Shown: positions 22,374 to 39,072 of the stretch, piece after piece
How positions within the stretch are numbered: the stretch's first letter is position 1
How the letters are laid out: each line of letters begins with the position of its first letter
IMG/VR virus record: IMGVR_UViG_2734482565_000012
Source of the DNA: a virus
Lineage: Duplodnaviria; Heunggongvirae; Uroviricota; Caudoviricetes
DNA: 40,525 bases
Reading direction: 5' to 3' (one strand)
The notes under the pieces: model-generated
What the model was told of the DNA's origin: nothing
Seen by the model: the letters and a program-made list of their open reading frames with translations, nothing else
Databases searched by the model: none
Position numbers and translations under genes: made by a program

Positions 22374-22537
22374 TTTTCCTCACATATGTCATATAGTAAA
22401 GGATTATATATACCGTTGTTTTGGACGCTCAAACAGCGAATCAGATCAAATAAAACGCACATTTGTTAACATTTACACAAAGTCTGCGTGGGATATTCTG
22501 AAAGAATATCCATAATGTGGAGAGAATCTATTGAAGT

Positions 22538-22640
22538 GCATGGTGCCGGGTGCCTCCCGGTGAACAAAATGTTCGTGATACCTGTCGGCGACAGAAAAGG
22601 TTAATGGTATCACCCCACCGCACAGGGGGATTCACCATGC
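22538..22640. repeat. dense cluster of nested inverted repeats in the leader of the late operon
   Basis: gcatggtg(22538)...caccatgc(22640) outer arms; ccggg-tgcct-cccgg; gaaca-aaa-tgttc; gtgatacc...ggtatcac enclosing palindrome ctgtcgGcgacag. Confidence 0.4.
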
Positions 22641-22960
22641 AGGAGTTTTCTTAGCAAACTCACTGCGCGCCCGGCAACTCCCAACCACATAAAATGCGGA
22701 GTTTGTGGCATTTATGCATATAACTCGCAGGAATTATCTTAAAAAACTGATGTCGATCCGGATTAAAAAGAAGCAGGTCATCATCAGATGACTGGAAAAA
22801 AGGAAAACAAAAAATACTCATCATACAGTTTTGATTGCAGGGATGAGCCTGCTATGCACAATATGCAGAATATAAGCAAGATAAAAATATGCAGGCATAT
22901 TATTTCGGATCTTGTTATTAACACAACCTTTTTAATAATCATTTGGCATACAATAAACCA

Positions 22961-23960: not shown

Positions 23961-24247
23961 AAATGACCTTTCTTTCTCCAGATTTCTTGTGTGCGAAAAA
24001 CCCCTTCAGCATGCATCAGGCGCAATTCTTCTTTGGTGTAATCGCTGGTTTTTACCCGCCCGTCGATTAGATCGTGGCATGAGCTACAGGCTATCGCCGC
24101 CTGCATATCATGTGGTTTTGTCGCTGTTCCGCACGTCCCCGCCAGCCTGTAATGCGCCAGCACAGAGGTTTCGGGATTGTGATTGCAGTAGCCAGGGATT
24201 CTGATCTGGCACATCTGGCCTTTAGCCGCTTTACGTAAATTCACCAT
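23957..24247 (-). CDS. DUF1364-type nin-region protein (YbcO-like, Cys-rich putative metal-binding)
   Basis: 96 aa; CQIRIPGYCNHNPETSVLAH..TCGTATKP..IACSSCHDLIDGR matches the YbcO-like pattern of lambdoid prophages as recalled. Confidence 0.6.
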   Translation of the reverse strand: MVNLRKAAKGQMCQIRIPGYCNHNPETSVLAHYRLAGTCGTATKPHDMQAAIACSSCHDLIDGRVKTSDYTKEELRLMHAEGVFRTQEIWRKKGHL

Positions 24248-24846
24248 TACGCAAACTCCAGTAGTTGTGCGGCCACATTTTCAACTTCCTCCTGAGAGGA
24301 GAATTTACGGAACAGAATCCAGTTCCACAGCACATTCAGTACAGATTTATAAACCTGCTGAAACTCGACTTCGTCCATATTCGCAAAAGCGATGGATTTT
24401 GCCCGACGCCCACGGCTACCGTCCGGATAAATATGCTCGGTGTAAAATCCGGCCTGAATGGTTACCCACTCGCGGAAAGCCTCAAACGACTTTAGCAACG
24501 CCGTATCCCGGGTTCTACGAGTCGCAACGGTGTTAAGGTATTGCTCTGCGGCATCACTCAGGGCTGGCGTGTGTTCCCGACCAACTGATTCGCACAGGTA
24601 ATCAACGAAACCAGACAGCAGTTCTCGTTCGCGAGGCGTGATCGCCCCACCGACCGGAGTCCAGTAATCGAATCCCAGTTGCAGGAGTTTGAAAAAACGC
24701 TTGTGGAATGCGTAGTTACGCACACGCTTAAAGTCTGCGTGTATCCACTCACCTATTTTGATTTGATGCAGAAAATCGCAACTCTCCGGCGTCGCCGGGA
24801 GAAGTAAACCAGAAGAGGTTTGTTTGACCAGTTGTATATGCGCCAT
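24247..24846 (-). CDS. conserved lambdoid nin-region protein (DUF1367-like), function unknown
   Basis: 199 aa; stop overlaps the downstream start; family name from memory only. Confidence 0.45.
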   Translation of the reverse strand: MAHIQLVKQTSSGLLLPATPESCDFLHQIKIGEWIHADFKRVRNYAFHKRFFKLLQLGFDYWTPVGGAITPRERELLSGFVDYLCESVGREHTPALSDAAEQYLNTVATRRTRDTALLKSFEAFREWVTIQAGFYTEHIYPDGSRGRRAKSIAFANMDEVEFQQVYKSVLNVLWNWILFRKFSSQEEVENVAAQLLEFA

Positions 24847-25126
24847 TTCTCAATCTCTCGATGGCGCAGCGCAGCAGATGCCAGTTGTTCAGGCTGACGA
24901 ATAAAGTATAAATAAACTGGCTATGGTGTAAAGCCCCACATAGCATGAACAAACACTACATATCAAATAGCTGGTACAAGGATAGAAATACGACACTTAT
25001 TATTAAAAACGATTAGATAAATTACATTTTAATGTTATGCAAAAGTTCTTTTTTATCATAACATTTCAATAAAAGCATTACAGATGCAATCATCCCGTCA
25101 TCATCAATTATTTAAGGTGGTTAAAC

Positions 25127-25213
25127 ATGGAAAATAACAAGTTCGCACATCTCGCTCCTTTTTTATCCGTAATCCTTTTCGCTTGTTGTTTTATATGGGC
25201 ATTATTTTTATAA
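25127..25213 (+). CDS. 28-codon hydrophobic small ORF (candidate small membrane protein or type I toxin-like peptide)
   Basis: AAGGTGG SD 6 nt upstream of ATG; MENNKFAHLAPFLSVILFACCFIWALFL*; single predicted TM; sits in an approximately 800-bp AT-rich tract with no other ORFs. Confidence 0.3.
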   Translation: MENNKFAHLAPFLSVILFACCFIWALFL

Positions 25214-25604
25214 AGTAGCCACATGATAAGTTGCTGGAATCATATTTCCCACTCAAGTCATTAACATTTGATAAGATATATCTAAAAGGACGCCTTTACA
25301 TTATTTATGCGTATATAATTTATTTATATACACAGTAAAGGTATCCTGGGAAAATATTTATCGTTAAAAAATACATCATAAATAATTAAGCTGAAATTTC
25401 AGAACACAACTAATACACACAATAAGGTTCAGTAACAGTAATCTATGTGGACTACATCGAGATTTTTTGATTAAACTTTAATAACTTATTCCTAACACAC
25501 AGAATGCATAAACTAAAAGTAAAACAAATAGTTATACGAAAAACAACCATATTTATTCTATCTTCTCCTCTAATCAACATATCAATTATGTGTTTCATAA
25601 CAGC

Positions 25605-25644
25605 TTGACATAACCCTCCAAAAGATGCATTTTTAATGCATGTT
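25605..25644 (+). promoter_or_regulatory. candidate sigma70 -35 (TTGACA) plus NsrR-type operator upstream of the yeaR-like gene
   Basis: TTGACA at 25605-25610; AAGATGCATTT-T-TAATGCATGTT (25622-25644) is an imperfect 11-1-11 inverted repeat matching the NsrR box AAGATGCATTT-N-AAATGCATCTT as recalled. Confidence 0.4.
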
Positions 25645-25659
25645 TTGGAGGAGGTGGTT

Positions 25660-25998
25660 ATGACACACAAGAGAATTCCTAAAGATTGGGTAATCAAACG
25701 CTCAACTCCGTTCTTCACAAAAGAGAACGTACCTTCAGCGTTATTAACACATCATAATACAGCAGCAGGTGTTTTTGGGCAGTTGTGCGTAATGGAAGGC
25801 ACTGTAACATATTATGGTTTTACTGATGAGAATGCTACTGAACCGGAGATAAAAGTAGTCATTAATGCTGGCGCTTTTGCAACAAGCCCACCACAATACT
25901 GGCACCGTGTTGAACTAAGCGATGATGCTCAGTTTAATATTAACTTTTGGGTCGCTCCAGACTTTTCGGGCGAAAAAGTCTATAGCACCAAAAAATAG
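25660..25998 (+). CDS. YeaR-like protein (DUF1971)
   Basis: 112 aa from MTHKRIPKDW with GGAGGAGG SD; RSTPFFTKENVPSALL..HNTAAGVFGQLCVMEGTVTYYGF..EPE..INAGAFATSPPQYWHRVE..FNINFWVAP parallels E. coli YeaR as recalled. Confidence 0.8.
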   Translation: MTHKRIPKDWVIKRSTPFFTKENVPSALLTHHNTAAGVFGQLCVMEGTVTYYGFTDENATEPEIKVVINAGAFATSPPQYWHRVELSDDAQFNINFWVAPDFSGEKVYSTKK

Positions 25999-26065: not shown

Positions 26066-26618
26066 TAAATATATTGGTTCTACATTGACAGGAGACTTCA
26101 ACCATAAGAAGTAATCTGAATACTTGAGCAATAAATTTACTTAAGATTAATGAGCGCACCTTGCCGGACAAAGATAAACCAAGGTAACACCTTTTTTCTA
26201 GCCAGTATGTAATCAATCAGAAAGCCGCTCCATAAGAACAACAGCAAGACAATAAATTGCCATTACAGCCGCAATAGCCAGCGCACATTTGAGAACCAGC
26301 ACGACAACCCCCTGTATTAGACGCACACCAGTCCTGATAAATATGAGGCTGTCTCGTCAGTGATTCAATACAACTATTGGGTATAGTTTCTGTGATTTTA
26401 TTCTGTAGAAATGGAACACAACAACCAGTCACCACCAGCACTTCCTTAAATGCTCTAAGTCAGAAACAAGCCAACATTTTAGTCCGCTTTGAGCGATCTG
26501 CAGACATTGCTAGCAGCCTTCTGTGTGAATTCTCAGGGAGCAGGTCGGCATAGCATCACGTTGAGGCTCTTACCCTACTTGTTCACACCAACCCTAACTC
26601 CACAGACTGATTCATAAA

Positions 26619-27620
26619 TTAGTAATCTGCGTGTTTCGCACTTTTCAGAAATGCTTTCATATTTTCATTAGGTCGCTCAATTTCGAAGTTACTTCCATAT
26701 AACTCTTGTAATTTTGGCCATAACTTACTTAATAACCCTCTCCTGCGATAAAATGGATGTATCCAAACGGTAGATAGGTACGGAGAATTTGCATTTGAAT
26801 TGTTTATTGTGACCAGCCCAACTAAACATTGTCGATAACCACTATTATCCATTGATTGTATTTCTTCGACGAATGGATACGCGATTACATCAGTCCAACC
26901 ATGATCGGTTGTATCCCATTGCATTCCGTCATGACATTCCTTCGACTGATAGCGGCGTAAAGCTACACACGCGAGCTTTTGCCAATCTGGAGAATTAATT
27001 GTGATCTCTTCATCGTATGACGCGCCTATTGGAGCGGGTATTGGTCTGATTAATCCAGCATGGCATTCATCATAGAACTTCATGTTTCCCTCAGAAACGT
27101 TGTGTACGTTGGGTTGCTCCATGTGTGCGCCATTCAAAAATAGCTCTGATAGTAGTGTATCTACACTGTAATCTTTATTGATTATTGTCGGCTTAGAGTT
27201 TTTCTTATTAAGGCCGCGAGTAACGATTTTTTGATCAATGTTAACAACATGGAATAATCCGTCGGGGAGGCTAGCGAACCACGATGGGGCATCGGACCAG
27301 AATAGCATGCCTTTTGTACTTCTTAAGAGTTTAATTAAGTTAATACAAGCTTCTTCACTAGTCTTGCCGTTGATGCGAAGTATGTTAGGACTAAAGTAAT
27401 ATTCATCCATATCAGGGAATGCAGCTTCGCAAAACTCCTGTACATAATTTAGCACCTGGATTCTACAGAGATCATCATAGCTGGTAATAACTAAGGGGGT
27501 ATCTTCATTACTATTATGATTATCAATAATGCAATCTATAGCGAGACTTACTGCTTTGCGTATCACTTCAGTTGAATCTAACGACTCTAAAAATTTTGTC
27601 TTTCGTGTGCGAATATCCAT
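26619..27620 (-). CDS. hypothetical protein B of AT-rich two-gene cassette (C-terminal GNAT-like motif)
   Basis: 333 aa; start 15 nt after the stop of gene A; C-terminal ..GYRQCLVGLVTIN..YLSTVWIHPFYRRRGLLSKLWPKLQEL.. resembles GNAT motif A; AT-rich codon usage; no resemblance to core lambdoid genes. Confidence 0.65.
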   Translation of the reverse strand: MDIRTRKTKFLESLDSTEVIRKAVSLAIDCIIDNHNSNEDTPLVITSYDDLCRIQVLNYVQEFCEAAFPDMDEYYFSPNILRINGKTSEEACINLIKLLRSTKGMLFWSDAPSWFASLPDGLFHVVNIDQKIVTRGLNKKNSKPTIINKDYSVDTLLSELFLNGAHMEQPNVHNVSEGNMKFYDECHAGLIRPIPAPIGASYDEEITINSPDWQKLACVALRRYQSKECHDGMQWDTTDHGWTDVIAYPFVEEIQSMDNSGYRQCLVGLVTINNSNANSPYLSTVWIHPFYRRRGLLSKLWPKLQELYGSNFEIERPNENMKAFLKSAKHADY

Positions 27621-27635
27621 GTATGACCTGCGCTA

Positions 27636-28658
27636 TTAAAATTCATGAATGAACGGTTTGTCATCTGGTTGCAAAATGGTGGTTTTATTCGTTGCTACAT
27701 TTAAACTGTTGTAGAGCATAATTGCCAGGTTCGATGCATTTTCAATCAGCGTTTCAAGATCCTGGTCTGTAATCACTACGAGGTTCCCTTCTTTATCCTT
27801 TCCACCACGATGCACTAAGTGATTTCGATTGAGGGTTGCCAATTCAATAGCTTCTATCGGACAGTCTTTTTGTACTTTTATATCGAATGTAGCTTCATAG
27901 CGGTCGATTACCTTTTTAGTGCTATGCCAGCTTGCACTGATCAAGTGTTCCTTGATTGACCTGATTAGCTCTCCCCTAATTTTCTCGATGGGTTCACCCT
28001 TGAAAGGCAACGCAGCAATATCTTTGCTTACTTTAAATTCAGTCTTACCTTTTTCTATACAATTGGCTATGTAGACATCATCTTTCTCTATAGAATTAAT
28101 GAATAGCTCAACATAAAGCGTTTCCAAAGCTGTAATAACATTCGTGTAGAGCAAACTAAGCAAGTGGTTTTTTTGCTGTTGTTCAGTTTTATCTTTTGCA
28201 AGTTTTTTTATTTTATCGATATTATCAATGAATTTTAAATACGGATTACCGGAAGACGTTACAGCGTCGTAGATATCATCATCGTACCAATCATCTATAT
28301 TATTTGAGTTTCCAGACCAGTCAAAACATTGTGTTTGTAATTCATCTACTAATTCCTCAATATACTCAGATTTAACATATTGACCGAAGATGGATTGTAG
28401 TTCTTCGCTCGCATCATACGGCCCGCCATATATGTAAGCATAGCCACCTTCTCTACTTTCATACGGACAAGCATTTGCCGGATCTTCAAAGTTTTCAAAG
28501 AACCAGTTTTTCATTACTTCGAGTTGATCTTTTTTGCTTATGTATTTTAAAGATTTTAGTGGAACTTTCTTTCCATTAACCTCGAAAACAATTTTCACGA
28601 TGTAACGCTCCCTTGTATCAATTGCGCAACTATTATACCACAGCGAAATACAGGGCAT
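27636..28658 (-). CDS. hypothetical protein A of AT-rich two-gene cassette (C-terminal HEPN-like R-x4-H motif)
   Basis: 340 aa from MPCISLWYNS with AAGGAGG SD (ORF track start 28727 is upstream of the SD); C-terminal ..AIELATLNRNHLVHRGGKD.. has RN-x3-H spacing; acidic N-terminal region. Confidence 0.65.
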   Translation of the reverse strand: MPCISLWYNSCAIDTRERYIVKIVFEVNGKKVPLKSLKYISKKDQLEVMKNWFFENFEDPANACPYESREGGYAYIYGGPYDASEELQSIFGQYVKSEYIEELVDELQTQCFDWSGNSNNIDDWYDDDIYDAVTSSGNPYLKFIDNIDKIKKLAKDKTEQQQKNHLLSLLYTNVITALETLYVELFINSIEKDDVYIANCIEKGKTEFKVSKDIAALPFKGEPIEKIRGELIRSIKEHLISASWHSTKKVIDRYEATFDIKVQKDCPIEAIELATLNRNHLVHRGGKDKEGNLVVITDQDLETLIENASNLAIMLYNSLNVATNKTTILQPDDKPFIHEF

Positions 28659-28688
28659 AACCTGCCTCCTTAAACTAACATACCATGA

Positions 28689-28712
28689 GCCAGCAATGTC
28701 CGCTATTGGCAC
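28689..28712. promoter_or_regulatory. perfect 7-bp inverted repeat immediately upstream of cassette gene A
   Basis: gtccgct-attggcacaa-agcggac about 30 nt upstream of the SD of gene A; a TTGACA hexamer lies a further about 40 nt upstream on the minus strand. Confidence 0.3.
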
Positions 28713-28796
28713 AAAGCGGACAACCACGCTAGCTCTCCCCTGTGCCAGAAAAATGTCAATTTACATATGAACTAATGCTCTTTGATCTAGTAACGT

Positions 28797-31606: not shown

Positions 31607-32029
31607 TTAATGAACAATGACAGAATCGTCGGAAGACCCGCCGCCGCTGAAATGCGCTTTCCGGTAAACGGCTTGGACTGCATCATCATGCGCATCAATT
31701 GCCGTACTTAACGCTTCCTGCGCCGCCAGTAATGCACGGCGTTCCAGGGTATCGAAGATGCAGAGTCGGTGACGCAGCTCGCGCGGAAGGATTGCCAGAA
31801 TTGCTGGGATCAGCTTCTGAATTTTTTCTCTTTGCGTTTTCGTTTCACCTTTCAACCAACGGTGATAGATATTCTGCTGATTATTCCAGTCCTTGCCTGG
31901 TACCAGGGGCAATTCGCCGCCCCCCTGGCGCAGATATTCTTCAGTAATGGCATTGGCTACCCATGCCTGCCCTTTTTCGGCTGCCAGGGCTAACAACACT
32001 GACTCGATGTGCTCATGCTTGATTTTCAT
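31607..32029 (-). CDS. ydaT: YdaT (CII-position regulator of Rac-type switch)
   Basis: 140 aa, immediately downstream of ydaS with overlapping stop/start; matches Rac YdaT length. Confidence 0.8.
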   Translation of the reverse strand: MKIKHEHIESVLLALAAEKGQAWVANAITEEYLRQGGGELPLVPGKDWNNQQNIYHRWLKGETKTQREKIQKLIPAILAILPRELRHRLCIFDTLERRALLAAQEALSTAIDAHDDAVQAVYRKAHFSGGGSSDDSVIVH

Positions 32030-32280
32030 GAATCAACTCCCATCAGCTTTTTCGTAGTAGTTTTATTTCTGCCAATAGTTAAAATTACATCAGCAGAAAA
32101 TAATCCGTTTGATGCATGAGCGATTTTTTCAGCGTAATTTGTTTCGCCGGTATATTCTGTGCGAGGCAATTTTCCGTTATCCATCCATTTGTAGATTGCT
32201 CTTTGGCTGACACCACAAACGTCGGCCACAACAGAAACGCGAACAGTTTTGATTACATCTTCAAGTGTTTTCTGGTTCAT
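32026..32280 (-). CDS. ydaS: Cro-like HTH regulator YdaS
   Basis: Start placed at MNQKTLEDVIKTVRVSVVADVCGVSQRAIYKWMDNGKLP (HTH); divergent from racR (ORF track extends to 32352). Confidence 0.8.
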   Translation of the reverse strand: MNQKTLEDVIKTVRVSVVADVCGVSQRAIYKWMDNGKLPRTEYTGETNYAEKIAHASNGLFSADVILTIGRNKTTTKKLMGVDS

Positions 32281-38597: not shown

Positions 38598-38792
38598 ATG
38601 AGATATGACAATGTTAAACCATGTCCATTTTGTGGTTGTCCATCAGTAACGGTGAAAGCCATTTCAGGATATTACCGAGCGAAGTGTAACGGATGCGAAT
38701 CCCGAACCGGTTATGGTGGAAGTGAAAAAGAAGCACTCGAACGATGAAATAAACGAACCACTGGAAATAATAATGGAGGTGTTCATGTATAA
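38598..38792 (+). pseudogene. ralR: ralR (restriction-alleviation / type I toxin) frame with in-frame TGA at codon 50
   Basis: ATG 38598: MRYDNVKPCPFCGCPSVTVKAISGYYRAKCNGCESRTGYGGSEKEALER then TGA (38745-38747); the same frame stays open 14 more codons (NKRTTGNNNGGVHV) to TAA at 38790-38792. Confidence 0.5.
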
Positions 38793-38973
38793 AATTACCG
38801 CCACTATTGAAAAGGAAGGTGGCACTCCTACTAACTGGACAAGATATTCAAAATCTAAACTAACGAAATCAGAATGCGAAAAAATGCTCTCAGGTAAAAA
38901 AGAAGCAGGCGTTTCCAGAGAGCAGAAAGTAAAACTGATAAATTTTAATTGCGAGAAACTTCAGTCCTCGTGA
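38785..38973 (+). CDS. ydaC: YdaC-like small protein
   Basis: GGAGG SD then ATG at 38785; MYKITATIEKEGGTPTNWTRYSKSKLTKSECEKMLSGKKEAGVSREQKVKLINFNCEKLQSS. Confidence 0.65.
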   Translation: MYKITATIEKEGGTPTNWTRYSKSKLTKSECEKMLSGKKEAGVSREQKVKLINFNCEKLQSS

Positions 38974-39072
38974 ATTGCATTGTATTCAAATTAAAACTTC
39001 ATAGCTGATTATTAATAATCAACATCGGGCGTCAATTTAAGTCTAACATTGGCGCCTGCCAGAGGTGATGCG

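Follow-up and report, generated by a model that had tools for sequence, protein, structure and literature searches.

A candidate 28-codon membrane microprotein gene at the edge of a cargo slot in Escherichia Rac-type prophages

Bacterial proteins of about 30 residues are known that modulate larger membrane proteins, and the class of small inner-membrane proteins, with KdpF, AcrZ, MgtS, PmrR and CydX, was found through ribosome-binding-site models and comparative genomics. The locus described here holds an open reading frame (ORF) of 28 codons, located at positions 25127–25213 of a 40,525-nucleotide stretch of viral DNA (IMG/VR record IMGVR_UViG_2734482565_000012, in the following called the window) that belongs to a Rac-type prophage of Escherichia coli. 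The ORF lies in an AT-rich tract between a DUF1367 gene on the minus strand and a DUF1971/yeaR-like gene on the plus strand (Table 1). Like KdpF and its class it specifies about 30 residues with a single transmembrane segment, has a strong Shine-Dalgarno (SD) sequence, occurs in close relatives only, is constrained in hydrophobicity with few invariant polar residues and is missed by annotation pipelines. It differs from them in being prophage-borne and not chromosomal, it shows no homology to any of them, and its membership is by features only, namely a length of at most 50 codons, a strong ribosome-binding site, one predicted transmembrane helix and a substitution pattern of the coding type. 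The ORF is absent from the annotation of the records and from the family libraries; it adds a member to the membrane microproteins of bacteria and prophages, which are a known kind, and does not represent a new kind of system. Judged from its sequence it is very likely a protein-coding gene, and we give about an even chance to the reading that its product is a non-lethal small membrane protein with a transcription unit of its own.

Three other groups are close enough for comparison. The small hydrophobic E. coli type I toxins Ibs, ShoB, TisB, DinQ, ZorO and Ldr have 18–35 residues, one hydrophobic helix, a good ribosome-binding site, an intergenic or prophage location and a structured leader, all of which recur here, but the ORF has no sequence relationship to them, and no antitoxin RNA gene, sequestered ribosome-binding site or multiplication of copies was found with it. 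The Hok/Gef family likewise consists of membrane peptides with conserved Cys residues, and in clade B, one of the three clades (A, B and C) into which the copies of the ORF fall, a hok gene occupies the same prophage slot and ends 110 nt from the stop codon of the small ORF. Hok is however about 50 residues long, with a periplasmic domain and the mok/sok architecture, whereas the present ORF has 28 codons on the strand opposite to hok, gives no Hok/Gef match in Pfam or NCBIfam and is present with or without hok. The lambdoid morons, autonomous and often lysogen-expressed genes such as bor and lom, resemble it in low GC and in the strand opposite to the lytic operon, with a terminator directly after the gene in two of the contexts of the ORF, which would likewise be an independent unit. 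Unlike a moron, it is part of a conserved flank and not of the variable cargo, and it stays while the neighbouring cargo changes. The presence and absence typical of moron-type additions was not seen, as the ORF is constant within the Escherichia Rac-like modules and absent upstream of DUF1367 in other genera.

The open reading frame and its conservation

An earlier note on this DNA, made from the letters alone, had pointed to AAGGTGG, six nucleotides and an ATG leading into a hydrophobic ORF, and these were found where it had placed them. When the tract was shuffled 3000 times with its dinucleotides preserved, 2.6% of the shuffles held an ATG-initiated ORF of 25 or more codons preceded by a 6-nt SD core, and only 0.17% held one that also carried a hydrophobic 18-mer, so that the combination goes beyond chance. 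The same note assigned a single transmembrane segment to the peptide and compared it in size with type I toxins and small membrane regulators, and both points hold, the product having 28 residues of which 9–28 are hydrophobic. With one predicted transmembrane helix and the few charges placed at the N-terminus, an N-in/C-out topology is suggested. Residues M1, E2, N3, N4, H8, P11, F12, S14, I16, L17, F18, W24, A25, F27 and L28 are invariant, C21 is nearly so, and a second Cys is found at position 20 or 22.

Three other interpretations of these letters were rejected. A lipoprotein signal is contradicted by the lipobox [LVI][ASTVI][GAS]C, which is not kept (LFAC in clade A, FVLC in clade B and VFCC in clade C), and the only lipoprotein-related matches of the peptide are marginal, with E values of 0.05–0.24. 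The ORF contains no runs of regulatory codons and the genes downstream vary between the clades, which speaks against a leader peptide of an attenuator. An ORF on the opposite strand (25108–25224) has neither its start nor its stop conserved in clade B.

Conservation of the peptide in related Rac-like prophages had been named beforehand as a check, and it is strong. A 109-nt query made up of the ribosome-binding site and the ORF matched 1175 of 5426 complete E. coli genomes (21.7%), in 1172 of them over at least 80% of its length, with one or two copies per genome (median 1) and no annotated feature under the ORF among the matches listed. Among 183 copies with a ribosome-binding site and ATG, collected from IMG/VR and metagenome scans together with genome and phage loci, every one has exactly 28 codons, in 15 peptide and 18 DNA variants. 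As a probe consisting of the ribosome-binding site and ATG partly favours intact copies, the module was sampled again with a 33-nt probe located in the DUF1367 promoter, outside the ORF. This gave 87 full-length modules, 85 with an intact ORF and two with an insertion further upstream, and the ORF is thus intact in 85 of the 85 modules that lack an insertion. The two interrupted modules (IMG/VR loci L142 and L145) carry the insertion about 85 nt past the probe, between the DUF1367 promoter and the small ORF, and by eye it looks like the end of an insertion sequence.

All copies come from Escherichia/Shigella, including E. ruysiae, and from human-gut and food metagenomes. The ORF is also present in four induced E. 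coli phages, and the module therefore belongs to phages that are still inducible. The DUF1367 loci of Salmonella, Citrobacter, Pantoea and Serratia have unrelated DNA in front of the gene, and no such ORF was found in it. A look-up of the exact peptide sequence gave no match, tblastn against phage and plasmid records returned only the same Escherichia element without annotation, and Rfam had no match in the tract at gathering or permissive thresholds. Among the searchable papers none has the peptide string, and in the literature nothing relevant was found on DUF1367 or on small proteins of Rac.

Clades A and B differ at 18 of the 87 nucleotides of the ORF without any indel, and the start, the stop and AAGGTG are kept. 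The codon differences comprise six synonymous and seven amino-acid-changing ones (pN/pS 0.35), and only hydrophobic replacements are found. If 18 substitutions are placed at random, the probability that the ORF stays intact with seven or fewer replacements is 0.002, or 0.006 when the observed transition bias is included. The identity between the two clades is 79% without gaps in the ORF but falls to 52% with gaps in the leader just upstream of it and to 57% with gaps in the spacer further upstream; it is 84% without gaps in the block 24994–25045 and 92% without gaps in the DUF1367 promoter and leader. The selection is for a hydrophobic peptide: by our count the haplotype tree has 16 non-synonymous changes in codons 9–28, and none of them introduces a charge, a strongly polar residue, Pro or a stop, whereas such changes should make up about 22–26% (P about 0.01–0.02 by our calculation).

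Module boundary and flanking signals

The tract was compared with the same 5426 genomes by sensitive blastn. At least 80% of it was matched in 463 genomes, and in about 700 further genomes the match is limited to 24850–25214 of the window, at 74–77% identity, and breaks off where the small ORF ends, with different DNA beyond. The tract therefore consists of two parts: the left 368 bp (24847–25214) is a conserved phage module and the right part, of about 445 bp, is DNA of the DUF1971 cassette. The suggestion in the earlier note that the whole could be one acquisition scar does not agree with this division. Between clades the homology breaks off 1–2 nt past the stop codon, and three downstream contexts are found. 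Among 164 copies with enough downstream sequence, 70 have a convergent hok 110 nt past the stop, as in locus L003 where a Hok/Gef gene lies on the opposite strand beyond the ORF, 55 have a co-directional DUF1971 gene 447 nt past it, and 39 have something else; 19 of these 39 open with DNA in which a strong two-way terminator, AAACCCGCTACAGCGGGTTT, is contained.

In the left module the minus strand carries the probable promoter and the leader of the DUF1367-DUF1364-Q operon, and the plus strand carries, in divergent orientation, the small ORF and its leader hairpin. The leader hairpin lies next to a conserved block that is the presumed regulatory region of the ORF (Table 1). In the hairpin or hairpins 94% of the cells are paired, against 29–42% when the partners are slid, and many of the pairs are G-U pairs that are compatible with the plus strand only. 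In clade B a second hairpin, in which C-G pairs are exchanged for U-A, lies closer to the ribosome-binding site. The pairing together with the strand-specific G-U pairs supports a plus-strand transcript that would start at or before about 25030, on the basis of few independent events. The translation-initiation region is weakly structured in the three clades (-5 to -7 kcal/mol, z 0.2 to 1.2), and a putative mRNA of 266 nt in the window is no more stable than its shuffles (z -0.07). Downstream, a terminator of 15 bp followed by a U-tract is found in clade C about 20 nt past the stop of the ORF, and in clade B the 3' hairpin of hok follows the stop.

In neither clade A nor clade B does any promoter-like site, whatever its strand, score higher than TTTACA-16-TATACT on the minus strand (24932..24905), and it is the only site that is strong in both. 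Judged by its sequence features, the region 24932..24880 would hold promoter and leader of the DUF1367-DUF1364-Q operon. A hairpin with a conserved 9-nt loop, C(C/U)UGAACA(A/C), follows directly after the -10 hexamer, and compensatory changes occur in three of its four predicted pairs. The stem covaries across prophages of Escherichia, Salmonella, Citrobacter, Pantoea and Serratia (loci L006–L020, at about 2940–2990). By eye the loop resembles boxB.

Proposed role and alternative explanations

According to the reading to which we gave about even chances, 25127–25213 would be a true gene whose translation yields a single-pass microprotein of 28 residues in the inner membrane, and a part of the conserved backbone of Escherichia Rac-like prophages. 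It would form a small transcription unit of its own on the strand opposite to the DUF1367-DUF1364-Q late-regulator operon, in which the ORF and its strong, accessible ribosome-binding site are combined with the conserved upstream block and the 5' leader hairpin, and in two of the three genomic contexts with an intrinsic terminator-like hairpin within about 20–40 nt after the ORF. The unit would be placed at the exact edge of a slot where DUF1971/yeaR-like, hok or other cargo genes are exchanged. As the ORF points away from the lytic operon, its expression would probably not depend on lytic transcription and would take place in the lysogen. The peptide should most likely insert N-in/C-out, and inside the membrane it would probably serve a larger membrane protein as an accessory subunit or modulator, without lethal effect, rather than form pores as a toxin.

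Several points weigh against this reading. Transcription and translation are deduced from the DNA letters, and the modulation of a membrane protein is proposed by analogy only. In promoter scans no convincing σ70 promoter was found upstream of the ORF in both clades, the candidates TTATTA-17-TACATT and ATGCCA-18-TAAAGT being weak, and no good terminator follows the ORF in the window, which has only a weak hairpin and a T-rich run at 25285–25308. The minimum-spanning tree of the 18 DNA variants has 23 non-synonymous against 11 synonymous codon changes, and selection on the exact sequence is therefore only moderate. The diversity is low, with three clades all from Escherichia/Shigella, so that the independent evolutionary events are few. 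Profile searches of the peptide against Pfam, NCBIfam, PHROGs, PADLOC and PDB returned noise only and no homologue of known function.

A type I toxin would be a membrane-damaging peptide kept in check by an antisense RNA that is encoded in cis or divergently, as in Ibs/Sib, ShoB/OhsC and Hok/Sok, with prophage stabilisation or abortive infection as its role, and we regard it as unlikely for this ORF. Its 28 residues are well below the 60 that bound the small membrane-active peptides of type I systems, and the hydrophobicity that continues to the C-terminus (ShoB also ends in hydrophobic residues), the strong SD sequence and the intergenic site in AT-rich prophage DNA all fit, as do the leader of at least about 100 nt with its conserved hairpin or hairpins and, for clade B, the neighbouring hok locus of the slot. 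A weak promoter-like candidate, TTTCCA-16-TATGAT on the minus strand, overlaps the start codon in clade B and could yield a Sok-like RNA against the leader; read by eye, it is also found in clade C, and the window has a weaker TTTCCA-15-AATAAT. However, no pair of minus-strand promoter and terminator is common to the three clades, the clade C terminator leaves no room for a downstream antisense promoter, and the G-U pairs of the leader hairpin disfavour a structured minus-strand RNA. Another candidate antisense promoter, TTATCA-17-AATAAT at the 3' end of the ORF, was rejected as a general feature, with its -35 hexamer in non-homologous DNA and clade C lacking it. The antisense RNA gene that the earlier note had thought might be hidden in the AT-rich DNA could not be identified, neither as a conserved promoter and terminator pair nor as a match in Rfam. 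The ribosome-binding site, which should be occluded by the fold of a type I toxin mRNA, is not sequestered in any of the three clades, as the z scores of the initiation region and of the window mRNA show. The gene is present in a single copy per prophage, and no Hok/Gef or other curated model in Pfam or NCBIfam (E up to 10) and no Rfam antitoxin RNA was matched. The polar residues E2, N3, N4, H8 and S14 are invariant, suggesting a specific contact rather than generic pore formation. A toxin role is possible but unsupported, since neither an antisense RNA gene nor sequestration of the ribosome-binding site nor a pattern of multiple copies was found.

Less probable still is that the locus serves as an RNA or DNA signal in which the ORF is incidental, for example an insulator or buffer for convergent transcription between the cargo and the Q operon, or a recombination anchor for cargo exchange. 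The position of the ORF exactly at the homology breakpoint of the slot would suit such a signal, and so would the high nucleotide invariance of its last 14 nt and of CCTTTTTTATC, a ratio of non-synonymous to synonymous changes that is not low within the family, and a leader hairpin and conserved block that are present independently of coding. On the other hand the 28-codon frame, ATG, stop and SD are kept through 21% divergence without an indel while the flanks collect indels, the replacements are confined to hydrophobic or small residues, and five of the six synonymous-only differences between the clades lie within the most conserved stretches of the peptide. The least probable alternative, to which we give very little weight, is a scar silenced by H-NS, in which the tract would be silent junk from insertion of the yeaR-like cassette and the ORF never expressed. 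The tract has 31% GC, the lowest in the window, its right-hand 445 bp occur only with the DUF1971 cassette and tolerate 1-nt indels and a 57-nt deletion, and an H-NS nucleation motif is matched at 9 of 10 positions at 25014–25023. But the left 368 bp, including the ORF, are common to prophages with hok or other cargo and are therefore not part of the DUF1971 acquisition, the ORF is under selection, and the number of motifs is not above chance (9 against 4.4 expected, with 9 reached in 7 of 100 shuffles); binding of H-NS and a function are moreover compatible.

It is doubtful, in our view, that the ORF founds a new family of prophage membrane microproteins with a definite task at the membrane of the lysogen, acting either as a new type I-like toxin or abortive-infection effector or as a superinfection-exclusion factor or modulator of a host transporter, and bracketing a cargo slot together with a second micro-ORF in about a fifth of E. 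coli. About 22% of the complete E. coli genomes carry the gene without an annotation or an entry in a family library, and the microprotein gene is thus a concrete case of a hidden prophage microproteome. A membrane phenotype (toxicity, exclusion or transporter modulation), if true, would bear on prophage maintenance and lysogenic conversion, since the ORF adjoins both the late-gene antiterminator operon and the slot for hok, yeaR-like and other cargo. If the peptide is inert, the smaller value would be in a corrected annotation and a mapped boundary of the cargo slot.

The tract, the cargo slot and neighbouring features

Table 1. Features of the intergenic tract, in window coordinates
Feature	Position	Strand	Remarks
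AT-rich intergenic tract, 813 bp, 31% GC	24847..25659		between DUF1367 (-) and DUF1971/yeaR-like (+) genes
Leader hairpin of the DUF1367 operon, GUCAG-CCUGAACAA-CUGGC	24880..24898	-	conserved loop, covarying stem
σ70-type promoter-like site TTTACA-16-TATACT of the DUF1367-DUF1364-DUF1133 (Q-like) operon	24905..24932	-	both hexamers kept, spacer varies
Conserved block, presumed promoter/regulatory region of the small ORF	24994..25045		84% between clades, flanks 52–57%
Plus-strand leader hairpin	25031..25065	+	lower stem AAUGUUAUG/CAUAACAUU, nearly invariant; apical AAAAG/CUUUU, in clade B AUCUG/CAGAU
Shine-Dalgarno sequence AAGGTGG	25114..25120	+	6 nt 5' of the ATG; AAGGTG retained in all variants but one
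28-codon gene (very likely coding) MENNKFAHLAPFLSVILFACCFIWALFL	25127..25213	+	ATG at 25127, stop ending at 25213; polar N-terminus (MENNK..H), then hydrophobic segment of about 20 residues to the C-terminus
Non-coding AT-rich DNA, only with the DUF1971 cassette	25215..25604		1-nt indels and 57-nt deletion relative to close relatives
DUF1971 promoter region	25605..25659	+	TTGACA 25605–25610; NsrR-type palindrome 25622–25644; GGAGG ribosome-binding site

The gene-free tract is bordered on the left by the DUF1367 gene (24247–24846, minus strand, with its 5' side ending at 24846) and on the right by the DUF1971/yeaR-like gene (25660–25998, plus strand). Its GC content of 31.0%, against 45.1% for the window as a whole, is in the bottom 0.5% of all 813-bp windows and makes it the stretch of that size with the lowest GC, and the ORF list holds no ORF of at least 60 residues wholly within it, in agreement with the earlier description of about 800 bp of AT-rich, ORF-poor DNA. 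Positions 24700–25750 have a 100% match in several complete genomes, among them NCTC9066 and LD39-1. In LD39-1 one flank of the locus consists of tfaR, trkG, lysis genes, DUF1133 (Q-like), DUF1364 and DUF1367, and the other of sieB, kilR, racC, recE, recT, ralR, xisR and intR. The element is assigned to the Rac type because recE, recT, ralR, kilR, sieB and intR are near in the matching genome and because RalA is found by Rfam at 38791–38969 in the window.

In the right-hand part of the tract two further ORFs were rejected, 25231–25338 with its frame broken by a 1-nt indel in relatives, and 25504–25608 that has no SD sequence or evidence of conservation. At about 25349 the window lacks 57 nt that are present in loci L004 (3500–3557) and L002 and are flanked by CCTGG direct repeats, which looks like a deletion of the slippage type in non-coding cargo DNA. 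Upstream of the DUF1971 gene, the 11-1-11 palindrome AAGATGCATTT-T-TAATGCATGTT is near the NsrR consensus, and this suggests that the DUF1971/yeaR-like gene is nitric-oxide-responsive prophage cargo; the NsrR site of ytfE is for comparison AAGATGCATTTAAAATGCATCTT (PMC5320621 Table 4).

A second hydrophobic micro-ORF without annotation, MLVLKCALAIAAVMAIYCLAVVLMERLSD, is located on the minus strand at 26213–26302, with an alternative GTG start at 26326 and GGGGG 5 nt in front of a GTG start. It is more than 90% conserved in nucleotide sequence between the DUF1971 context of the window and a hok context (L003:5832–5921), and in 62 of 140 loci it is found on the minus strand 400–1000 nt past the first ORF. 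A charged C-terminal [ED][RH]LSD is kept, and neither Pfam nor NCBIfam gave a match. The cargo slot is bracketed by the first ORF (25127–25213) and the second micro-ORF. The region 26619–28727 holds two cargo genes on the minus strand, for proteins of 333 residues with a weak match to GNAT acetyltransferases and of 363 residues with a weak match to a HEPN/RES N-terminal domain; PADLOC gave no defence system match for either of them, and the GNAT-like and HEPN/RES-like genes may be an uncharacterised toxin or defence pair.

The YdaT (CII-like) box was rejected as a regulator of the tract, which contains none at up to two mismatches. A perfect box, TTGATTTTCATGAATCAA, is located at 32019–32036 at the start of the ydaT-like gene, the place where it is also described in Rac of K-12 (PMC11879457), and a copy with one mismatch at 39005–39022 adjoins the RalA/ralR locus. 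Downstream of the Q-like gene, Rfam matched the small RNA STnc100 at 22484–22670 on the minus strand with 86.6 bits, a position that suggests a short promoter-proximal late transcript.

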